Virus record (IMG/VR): IMGVR_UViG_2534681912_000006
Reading direction: 5' to 3' (one strand)
Origin: a virus
Lineage: Duplodnaviria > Heunggongvirae > Uroviricota > Caudoviricetes
Length of the DNA: 7,092 nucleotides
Part shown: one piece after another, positions 1,375 through 2,884 of the stretch
Layout: the number at the start of each line of letters is the position of its first letter
Position numbering within the stretch: the stretch's first letter is position 1
Position numbers and translations under genes: made by a program
Notes under the pieces: model-generated
What the model was told of the DNA's origin: nothing
Seen by the model: the letters and a program-made list of their open reading frames with translations, nothing else
Databases searched by the model: none

Positions 1375-1487
1375 CTATATTCATTCTTCCAGATTCCTTC
1401 CGGCAGAGCCTTATACTGAAATATACCTGGCTCAGGATATTGTTGAAAATATTATATGTTTGTCAAAAATAAAAGTTCTGTTAAGTA

Positions 1488-1841
1488 TTGATTGAGTGTT
1501 TGTTATACGGTCTAATGGTTTTTTCAGCATTAAATATTTATCATTCATATGGTGTGGGTAGAGTGAATATTGATGAGGCGTCGGGGTGTTTCATCCTTAG
1601 GCAGCGTATTGATATAGTCAATGCAGCACGAGCAAAGGCCTTCAGCCGTTTGACAGTTTTGTTCTGTACTCCTGATCGTCTTTCGGGAAGAGACGTTATT
1701 ATTCTGAATAGTGATGCTATTCAGAGGGTTTGCGATGAGTTCATGGTTGCTAATTCAGAATTATTTGCTCTTGTTCAGGAGTACAACAGAATAGCCAGGA
1801 CCTGTGGTATGGATGAACTTCGGATTACTCATCTGGGGTAG
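1488..1841 (+). CDS. Hypothetical protein (117 codons from TTG; first ATG at 1515), unrecognised; doubtful gene
   Basis: Only open frame of this size between the tRNAs and the downstream terminator. The amino-acid sequence is not low-complexity, but there is no convincing Shine-Dalgarno before any candidate start and the start codon is non-canonical. Confidence 0.3.
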   Translation: MIECLLYGLMVFSALNIYHSYGVGRVNIDEASGCFILRQRIDIVNAARAKAFSRLTVLFCTPDRLSGRDVIILNSDAIQRVCDEFMVANSELFALVQEYNRIARTCGMDELRITHLG

Positions 1842-2232
1842 ATACATATCTGGATTATCACTTGTTACGGTAAAAAGTGATTGCTTACTGTTTTTGTGAG
1901 TGGCATTGCAGCAGCCGGATAATGTCAGTGCTGGCTGACGGTGTGCTGGTGGCGGGTGTGGTGGTTGTTGCTTTCCCGTTGCTGAAAAAGAAAACGCCAG
2001 ACTGTTAGCCGGGTATCAGTTAGCGGGAGAAATTTTTAAATACTTCACAATTCAGGCGGTTGACTGTTGTCTGGTTTGCGGGGAGTTTGTTAAAAGAAAC
2101 TGGCATGGTGAATCCCCCTGTGCGGAGGGGCAATCAGCGAGTAGGTATATGGGATAATCGCGGATTCAGGTGCTGGTACTGAATTCACCGGGAGGCACCC
2201 GGCACCATGCAATGGCACATAGCGCCACTCTC

Positions 2233-2270
2233 CAGCCCCTCTCCGGAGGGGCTGTTTATATTGATTTTGT
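2233..2270 (+). terminator. Intrinsic terminator (plus-strand orientation)
   Basis: Perfect 9-bp stem CAGCCCCTC/GAGGGGCTG with 4-nt loop TCCG (2233-2254), followed by the T-rich tract TTTATATTGATTTTGT. The upstream flank is not A-rich, so it is unidirectional for the plus strand. Confidence 0.65.
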
Positions 2271-2288
2271 CAGATGTGAGTAAACTCC

Positions 2289-2624
2289 TTATGGACTTTG
2301 TTGTTTTAGTCCATAAGGACATATTTGCAGAGTGCAACGGTTATTAAAGCATTCATTCAATACGTTATCTGTATTTGTAGGACATTCCTGGCTGTTTTTG
2401 ATTAAATTCCAGAATGTTTTATTGAATGGTGCTACGTTGTAAATGGTTACAGGTAGCACTTTGTTATTGAGCATGATACCTGTGTGAGTCAGTGTAAATA
2501 TACTTTCAGGAGGTAAGAAAGCATCCGATTGATACCAGATTATTAATTTTATTTTACTCCATATGACTGAAAAAGATATTCCGCATGATGGCTGGATAAC
2601 TGTATCAATCACAATCCACTTCAT
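2289..2624 (-). CDS. Hypothetical protein, 111 aa, Cys/Trp-rich, unrecognised; cargo (moron) gene on the strand opposite to the late operon
   Basis: Minus-strand ATG at 2624..2622, preceded by a good SD (AAGGAA, about 6-7 nt spacer). The ORF lies in a visibly AT-rich block, distinct from the flanking phage genes. Confidence 0.5.
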
Positions 2625-2664
2625 TTAGTTTCCTTGTTTATGTCTTGCTGGTGATGTTCTGAAA

Positions 2665-2691
2665 AGTATAAATGATATTTTTGAATGTAAA
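2665..2691 (-). promoter_or_regulatory. Candidate sigma70-like promoter for the minus-strand ORF 2289..2624
   Basis: On the minus strand: -35 TTTACA (complement of 2686-2691), ~15-nt spacer, -10 TATACT (complement of 2665-2670), about 40 nt upstream of the ORF start. Found by eye only; the spacer is short. Confidence 0.25.
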
Positions 2692-2884
2692 CCATAGAGC
2701 AGAATTATTTTTCTGATGTTGTTTATTGTTTATTTAAATGCAGGGTGGTTTATATCTCGTCTTGTAGTTTATCCATGCATATCTGCTTGATGATGAGGTT
2801 TTTATTTAAGGTATGGTTTTGTGTTTTTTCTGTATTACATGTCAGGTATTTTAAAGAATTATTTTTCAGATGGTGGAAAGAACC

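Follow-up and report, generated by a model that had tools for sequence, protein, structure and literature searches.

An iraL-bearing accessory island at the stx position of a lambdoid Escherichia coli prophage

The window analysed here is the whole 7,092-nt stretch of viral DNA from IMG/VR record IMGVR_UViG_2534681912_000006, which comprises the part of a lambdoid Escherichia coli prophage concerned with late regulation and lysis. The region under study (1375-2884) lies in this window between the tRNA genes that follow the Q antiterminator gene and a nanS-p-type esterase gene. Its left edge was set at the ARAGORN-predicted end of a tRNA-Arg(TCT) at 1375, and its right edge at the start of the esterase coding sequence (CDS) at 2885, as annotated in 100%-identical DNA; positions 188-3045 match the chromosome of E. 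coli SCU-172 base for base. The region is an ordinary, widespread and already described iraL-bearing accessory island of E. coli prophages, and we put at about 90% the probability that it represents the iraL-bearing version of the accessory-gene (moron) slot of the lambdoid late region, built of two exchangeable cassettes that flank a conserved small RNA (sRNA) (Table 1).

The order of genes around the slot is that of the Shiga toxin (Stx) phages, as a preliminary description of this DNA had proposed. In Shigella phage 75/02 Stx the order is Q, stx1AB, an sRNA of the same family, esterase and holin, and the features that flank stx were found in the window, with Q, a late terminator and two tRNAs upstream, and a SASA/DUF6645 esterase and a P21-type holin downstream. 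The slot was also correctly described as devoid of stx: tblastn searches of the whole window with Stx1A and Stx1B yielded only matches with E values of at least 0.42, none of them in 1375-2884, and no gene of this region, whose largest open reading frame (ORF) has 117 codons, qualified as stxA or stxB. The site is therefore the one that Stx phages use for stxAB, a slot for horizontally acquired payload that is toxin-free here.

The earlier statement that the content of the slot was unrecognised did not survive. The genes iraL, STnc100 (RF02076), DUF3927 and phrog_2873 were all identified, and RefSeq carries annotation for the stretch (entries named "anti-adapter protein IraM", "DUF3927 family protein" and "hypothetical protein"). 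A comparison with complete E. coli genomes showed the stretch to be common: some part of the 1,510-nt region matched in 2,861 of the 5,426 genomes, and at least 80% of it in 863, many of them at 100% identity. Being common and annotated in RefSeq, the region was already known. The same description had named, as what would speak against it, a region that is common and annotated with no expressed products; the first two points hold, and the last fails, since expression of iraL and of STnc100 copies is known from other strains.

The mosaic structure was delimited by BLAST comparisons, which placed the joints at the end of the invariant sRNA segment (2184-2211) and at the esterase start codon (2885). 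The cassettes assort independently: in phage mEp460 the left cassette is present but iraL is not, and in 733R4, 716R1 and 813R8 the sRNA and iraL occur while the left cassette is missing. With joints at the end of the invariant STnc100 core and at the esterase start codon, stxAB, iraL, anti-sRNAs and other accessory genes can thus be swapped between phages. The value of the present check is mostly negative, in that a seemingly empty Stx slot proved to be a known iraL island and a false lead was removed. Through its protection of RpoS the iraL island tunes the general stress response of the host; uropathogenic E. coli and Shigella are enriched for it.

The iraL gene and the STnc100 small RNA

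The AT-rich minus-strand ORF of the preliminary description (111 codons) is iraL, which encodes an RssB anti-adaptor. The protein matched NCBIfam NF007393 (anti-adapter protein IraM) over residues 1-110 with 162.4 bits against a cutoff of 121, shared 63% identity over 107 aa with K-12 IraM, and matched the structure of the IraM N-terminal domain (PDB 8TWD) at E = 2e-32. A single amino acid change distinguishes it from CFT073 IraL (A65 in the window, V65 in CFT073), and the alignment of the 336-nt coding region showed three nucleotide differences from CFT073, so that the gene belongs to the iraL allele group, for which the coding region must be identical to that of CFT073 iraL at 95% or more of its whole length (PMC4045071).

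[quoted passage not shown] The -10 element TATACT (reverse complement of 2665-2670) lies 7 nt upstream of this start, and the -35-like hexamer TTTACA is the reverse complement of 2686-2691. One base differs from CFT073 in the 100 nt upstream of this start; taking an identity of at least 96% to the CFT073 upstream region, together with a mapped transcription start, as the mark of a conserved promoter, the iraL promoter is conserved in the window. In CFT073, genetics, 5'RACE and RssB-interaction data showed that IraL is an RssB anti-adaptor that stabilises RpoS in logarithmic phase (Hryckowian et al. 2014, PMC4045071), and that log-phase cells free of stress make it from a sigma-70 promoter belonging to the gene itself (PMC4045071). 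At 99% identity to the CFT073 protein, the IraL of the window would be expected to bind RssB's N-terminal domain and to stabilise RpoS in the same manner. The perfect inverted repeat that spans the iraL stop codon encodes QQSP, the four C-terminal residues that IraL has beyond K-12 IraM, and may form a stabilising hairpin at the iraL mRNA's 3' end.

The sRNA gene on the opposite strand fits the whole Rfam model RF02076 (positions 1-206 of 206; 132.4 bits against a gathering score of 47, E = 7.7e-30), with a predicted fold energy of -74.6 kcal/mol (z = -2.3). The strong terminator noted earlier was confirmed: the stem at 2233-2254, which with the following TTTATATT forms the Rho-independent terminator of the sRNA, is the strongest terminator-like site in 900-3100. 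The gene is located downstream of pR', with the moron CDS on one side of it and the conserved esterase ORF on the other, and members of the family were found in the same place at four other loci, namely phage 75/02 (79 nt past stx1B), mEp460, 640R1 (two copies) and a metagenomic locus. The core common with Stx phages extends from about 2036 to 2211, and its final 28 nt (2184-2211) were invariant in the six aligned copies (6/6). A conserved TTGTCT-N18-(TG)TAAAAG at 2067-2096 may be the sRNA's own promoter.

Coding potential inside STnc100 was considered and discarded. The only internal ORF that begins with ATG (25 codons, from 2105) is not conserved among copies, as its ATG is ATA in the copy of locus L006, and its sequence and stop position are changed in the first 640R1 copy (alignment read by eye); with no conserved internal ORF, the gene behaves as non-coding. 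Three further ORFs, 2090..2218 (-), 2185..2337 (-) and 2207..2347 (+), were taken as spurious, since all overlap the sRNA or its terminator; searches of Pfam, PHROG and NCBIfam were made for 2090..2218 and 2207..2347, and gave no family support for either. In identical DNA, RefSeq/PGAP places a minus-strand pseudo-CDS at 2093-2218 ("incomplete hypothetical protein"), antisense inside STnc100, which finds no support in Pfam, PHROG or NCBIfam and is probably an annotation artefact; a similar 70-aa call covers the second sRNA copy of phage 640R1.

The copy of this sRNA downstream of stx2B is EcOnc27 in strain Sakai, or sRNA103 in EDL933, which is bound by Hfq, was confirmed by Northern blot, and usually stands in a convergent pair with an anti-sRNA (AsxR, AgvB) at the moron site (PMC4104026, PMC7873438, PMC12711010). 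In EDL933 there are eleven copies, each with reads in the transcriptome, and a Northern blot confirmed one of them (PMC5331693). Effects on fimZ and espA were reported upon overexpression of the sRNA. A preprint of 2026 links STnc100 with the PasD sRNAs and notes that these sRNAs are associated with esterase genes. By analogy with the Sakai and EDL933 copies, the sRNA of the window may exist as a discrete Hfq-binding RNA. No Rfam match to the anti-sRNAs AsxR or AgvB (RF02703, RF02702) was obtained in the window at E <= 1, by the same search that does find AgvB in the Stx1 phage 75/02 locus, and the idea of an anti-sRNA of this kind hidden in the iraL 3' region was rejected accordingly; the place of the usual convergent anti-sRNA is taken here by iraL. 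In phage vB_EcoS-640R1, the two STnc100 copies (2665-2858 and 3134-3322 of the locus) lie about 470 nt apart, upstream of iraL, with unlike terminator-proximal parts, suggesting that the sRNA can be duplicated when cassettes are exchanged at its core.

In a lysogen, iraL would be transcribed leftward from 2657, as judged from its near-identity to CFT073, and RpoS would be kept high during exponential growth, a lysogenic-conversion trait equally transferred from CFT073. The sRNA would be expressed too, expression having been shown for the Stx-phage and EDL933 copies, and Hfq binding for the Stx2-phage copy. The plus-strand genes probably lie within the Q-antiterminated late transcript from pR', and would accordingly be co-expressed upon induction, while the terminator at 2233-2262 would halt those upstream transcripts that are not modified by Q.

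The plus-strand genes and alternative readings

The 117-codon plus-strand ORF of the preliminary description was found as reported, but the doubt expressed about it was not upheld, as it matches the phrog_2873 family and bears the marks of purifying selection. Residues 10-117 aligned with positions 1-108 of the PHROG profile. Homologues share 56-63% identity with the protein, and remote ones of 91-106 aa, called independently in other genomes, align only from about residue 26; the conserved core therefore comprises about 92 aa (residues 26-117), from GTG 1563 to the stop at 1841, GTG 1563 being one of three candidate starts (with TTG 1488 and ATG 1515).

It could be argued that this ORF is non-genic, and that 1376-1876 is instead a non-coding leader or regulatory region conserved for an RNA or DNA function. 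Its candidate starts lack a convincing ribosome-binding site, its first 25 codons are poorly conserved, and it was called neither by PGAP, in CFT073 or in SCU-172 DNA identical to the window, nor by the annotators of mEp460. This reading is nonetheless unlikely. In the comparison with a copy of 65% nucleotide identity, no stop interrupts the frame despite 35% divergence, and the only indel is one of a single codon; differences at the three codon positions are 35/33/54, an excess at the third, and the ratio of non-synonymous to synonymous substitution (dN/dS) is 0.33 with dS about 1.1. Motifs are conserved at the protein level, the remote homologues were called independently, and the ORF makes up a PHROG family of its own. 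By its pattern of substitution, the phrog_2873 ORF is a real gene under purifying selection, and its absence from the PGAP annotation is a gap, given the clear coding selection.

No match to the phrog_2873 protein was obtained in Pfam, NCBIfam or PADLOC. Its AlphaFold2 (AF2) model is a two-helix hairpin (helices 28-60 and 75-106; pLDDT 69.7), the best Foldseek match of which in BFVD reached only E = 0.4, and the attempt to derive a function from the fold was dropped, a simple helical hairpin of moderate confidence being uninformative. After Q in other prophages, the gene belongs to a set of four (AraC-like phrog_1450, phrog_2873, TerB phrog_632 and DUF3927 phrog_1470), and the left cassette is a reduced form of this set. 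At locus L006 (164-1686) and at locus L008 (3142-5038) the phrog_2873 gene directly follows the AraC-like phrog_1450 gene, and in L008 the TerB and DUF3927 genes come after it. Among 50,697 phage records the phrog_2873 gene was found in one, that of mEp460_ev081.

The second plus-strand gene accounts for part of what had been described as a GC-richer non-coding stretch. The rise in GC content is real (0.48-0.54 over 1800-2300, then 0.30-0.35 over 2300-2900), but the stretch is not fully non-coding, as its first 130 nt are the 43-aa DUF3927 ORF and the rest is the sRNA gene. The DUF3927 protein matched PF13064 with 95.6 bits against a cutoff of 25 (E = 1.7e-27), over profile positions 7-53 only, and phrog_1470 at E = 7.8e-13, over positions 23-51 of 54; its three substitutions relative to CFT073, read by eye in the alignment, are all synonymous (3/3). 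The phrog_2873 and DUF3927 proteins are two small proteins at the stx position that still have no assigned function.

Several observations weigh against the iraL-island reading, or at least against its functional part. Expression of iraL, of the sRNA and of both small proteins in this strain is transferred from other strains, and the 5' end and promoter of the sRNA were placed solely by conservation in an alignment of six copies. No canonical or U-tract terminator was found after iraL on the minus strand, by terminator scan or by repeat search, and iraL transcripts may therefore run antisense into the sRNA. No good Shine-Dalgarno sequence precedes any candidate start of the phrog_2873 gene, and the DUF3927 ORF begins with GTG and lacks the N-terminal residues of its family. 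The prophage shows signs of decay, with a frameshifted nanS-p and a degenerate tRNA, so that late transcription may never occur.

These last signs would suit a second alternative, in which the region would be inert, its genes being what is left of a defective prophage in decay and giving no functional product in the host; the loss of the AraC-like and TerB genes from the left cassette, relative to fuller versions, and the missing PGAP call for the 117-codon ORF point the same way. It is nevertheless very improbable, since iraL, its promoter and its 5' untranslated region (5'UTR) show no damage and scarcely differ from the allele expressed in CFT073, the sRNA fits the whole of the Rfam model down to the terminator, purifying selection acts on the phrog_2873 ORF and the DUF3927 ORF differs from CFT073 by synonymous changes alone, and the 1.5 kb occur at 100% identity in many unrelated strains. 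Least tenable, and largely refuted, is the original suggestion of a new payload (toxin, effector or defence system) in place of stxAB: although the slot is a recognised moron site (PMC4104026) and two of its four genes have no known function, iraL and STnc100 explain the largest part of the region, the three proteins gave no PADLOC defence match (only a chance-level E = 0.05 for IraL), no Stx-like match was obtained in the region, the further ORFs searched are without family support, and the DNA is common and annotated.

Within the iraL-island reading, two further roles are conceivable, though rather doubtful: the phrog_2873 protein might be a partner of AraC-like/TerB regulators or of DUF3927 that affects host physiology and, separately, an antisense iraL transcript might couple RpoS stabilisation to the level of STnc100.

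Flanking features

Upstream of the slot, the tRNA with a CAT anticodon at 1125-1200 presumably resembles ileZ. It is followed by the remnant of the middle tRNA-Arg of an Ile-Arg-Arg trio; neither ARAGORN nor Rfam called a tRNA at 1201-1300, whereas the trio is intact in the CFT073 prophage. A Plastid-ycf2 Rfam match antisense to a tRNA was discarded as a chance match to the tRNA. Directly after Q, a short promoter-to-terminator unit (985-1090) was observed, with a TTGATT...TAAATT promoter-like site and the terminator at 1062-1081, at the position from which, in Stx phages, a short transcript arises at pR' that has been described as the sRNA StxS. Of the Rfam families only Trp_leader matched there (982-1088; 25 bits against a gathering score of 41), and this was rejected as a chance match to the terminator.

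Downstream, a 1-nt deletion near 3046 relative to SCU-172 splits nanS-p into a 63-aa DUF1737 ORF (2870..3061) and a 597-aa SASA/DUF6645 ORF (3052..4845). No complete RefSeq E. coli genome matched 2870-3300 at 100% (best 99.5%), and the deletion is therefore either specific to the strain or a sequencing error. Just downstream of the holin gene lies a 297-aa ORF (5779-6672), whose first ~100 residues belong to DUF1327 (YdfR family) and whose remaining ~200 residues matched nothing in Pfam; in SCU-172, PGAP annotates only its first 336 nt, as a truncated YdfR pseudogene.

Table 1. Features of the iraL island and of its flanks in the 7,092-nt window.
Feature	Position	Strand	Evidence or remarks
Q antiterminator gene	259..981		PF03589 (Pfam)
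Intrinsic terminator, presumably the late terminator tR'	1062-1081		Terminator scan
tRNA with CAT anticodon, first after the late terminator	1125..1200	+	ARAGORN, Met; PGAP, tRNA-Ile; Rfam, 72.5 bits
Degenerate remnant of the middle tRNA-Arg of an Ile-Arg-Arg trio	1201..1300	+	CFT073 alignment: ends conserved, middle scrambled
tRNA-Arg(TCT)	1301..1375	+	ARAGORN; Rfam, 68 bits
Left cassette	1376 to about 2035	+	phrog_2873 and DUF3927 genes
phrog_2873-family gene (117-codon ORF)	1488..1841	+	PHROG profile, E = 3.8e-70
DUF3927/phrog_1470 "TciB-like" small hydrophobic protein, 43 aa	1877..2008	+	PF13064; RefSeq WP_000562553.1
Conserved sRNA segment	about 2036-2263	+	STnc100/EcOnc27 type, ending in an intrinsic terminator
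STnc100-family sRNA gene, counterpart of EcOnc27/sRNA103 of Stx2 phages	2074..2263	+	Rfam RF02076
Right cassette	2212-2884		Supplies the sRNA terminator and convergent iraL with its own sigma-70 promoter
Intrinsic terminator closing the sRNA	2233..2262	+	Stem 2233-2254 (9 bp, 7 GC, loop 4), then TTTATATT; terminal stem of the Rfam model
Perfect 12-bp inverted repeat with 10-nt loop, spanning the iraL stop codon	2286..2319	-	Repeat search
iraL, RssB anti-adaptor of the IraM/IraL/RssC family	2289..2624	-	110/111 aa identical to CFT073 IraL
iraL 5'UTR and sigma-70-type promoter	2625..2693	-	Published 5'RACE sequence and CFT073 alignment
AT-rich spacer (~30% GC)	2694..2884	.	iraL upstream regulatory region on one strand, nanS-p lead-in on the other; conserved in CFT073
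nanS-p-type esterase (DUF1737 + SASA + DUF6645)	2885..4845	+	Pfam; single 653-aa CDS in SCU-172
DUF1378 and DUF826 genes, P21-type holin gene (5562..5777), DUF1327 gene	3' of the esterase		

Comparison with known systems

The plus-strand genes of the window are homologues of genes 2 and 4 of the four-gene cassette at loci L008/L009, with 75% nucleotide identity over 1527-1816 and 70% amino acid identity over 27 residues of DUF3927. The window differs from that cassette in having neither the AraC-like regulator nor TerB, and in the N-terminus of its DUF3927 protein, which is different and shorter. In Escherichia phage mEp460_ev081 the likeness extends over 188-2211 (Q, tRNAs, phrog_2873 ORF, DUF3927 and sRNA core) at 99.3% identity; the two sequences diverge at 2211, and beyond this point a gene annotated as TolA follows in mEp460_ev081 where the window has iraL and then the esterase.

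The stx locus of Stx phages, known in the literature from Sp5/933W and compared here in Shigella phage 75/02 Stx, is likewise bounded by Q/pR' on one side and by the nanS-p esterase and holin on the other, with the sRNA directly 3' of the cargo. The 75/02 phage shares with the window only 2036-2211 (at 86% identity) and the sequence that begins at 2885. Its stxAB genes stand in the place of the phrog_2873 and DUF3927 genes of the window, and a 260-bp spacer with an AgvB-type anti-sRNA in that of the 673-bp iraL cassette. In the convergent Hfq-binding sRNA dyads of lambdoid prophages in enterohaemorrhagic E. coli (Tree et al. 2014, PMC4104026), too, an sRNA is found downstream of pR', with a moron CDS before it and a conserved phage ORF after it. 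Of such a dyad the window has the plus-strand member only, and the U-tract of its terminator is found on the plus strand only, whereas the copy of the Stx1 phage is flanked by runs of A and T.

K-12 IraM (b1160; PDB 8TWD) and Salmonella RssC belong to the same family as IraL and have the same target, RssB. IraM is induced through PhoPQ at low Mg2+. IraM requires stress for its action and touches the two domains of RssB, whereas IraL is active in log phase without stress and touches the N-terminal domain only (PMC4045071). At the K-12 iraM locus only the coding region is homologous, the flanks are unrelated and STnc100 is lacking, for which reasons a shared ancestry of the iraM and iraL slots was dropped.

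The prophage at potB in uropathogenic E. coli CFT073 (the "potB genomic island") shows the order Q, tRNAs, phrog_2873 ORF, DUF3927, STnc100, iraL (-) and DUF1737, with 96.7% DNA identity over 1083-3042 by BLAST and 98% column identity over 1100-2900. It differs from the window in an IS200C between Q and the tRNAs, in its three intact tRNAs and in the esterase, which is nearly full-length in the window but reduced to a DUF1737 stub in CFT073; like the window, it keeps only phrog_2873 and DUF3927 of the four-gene set.

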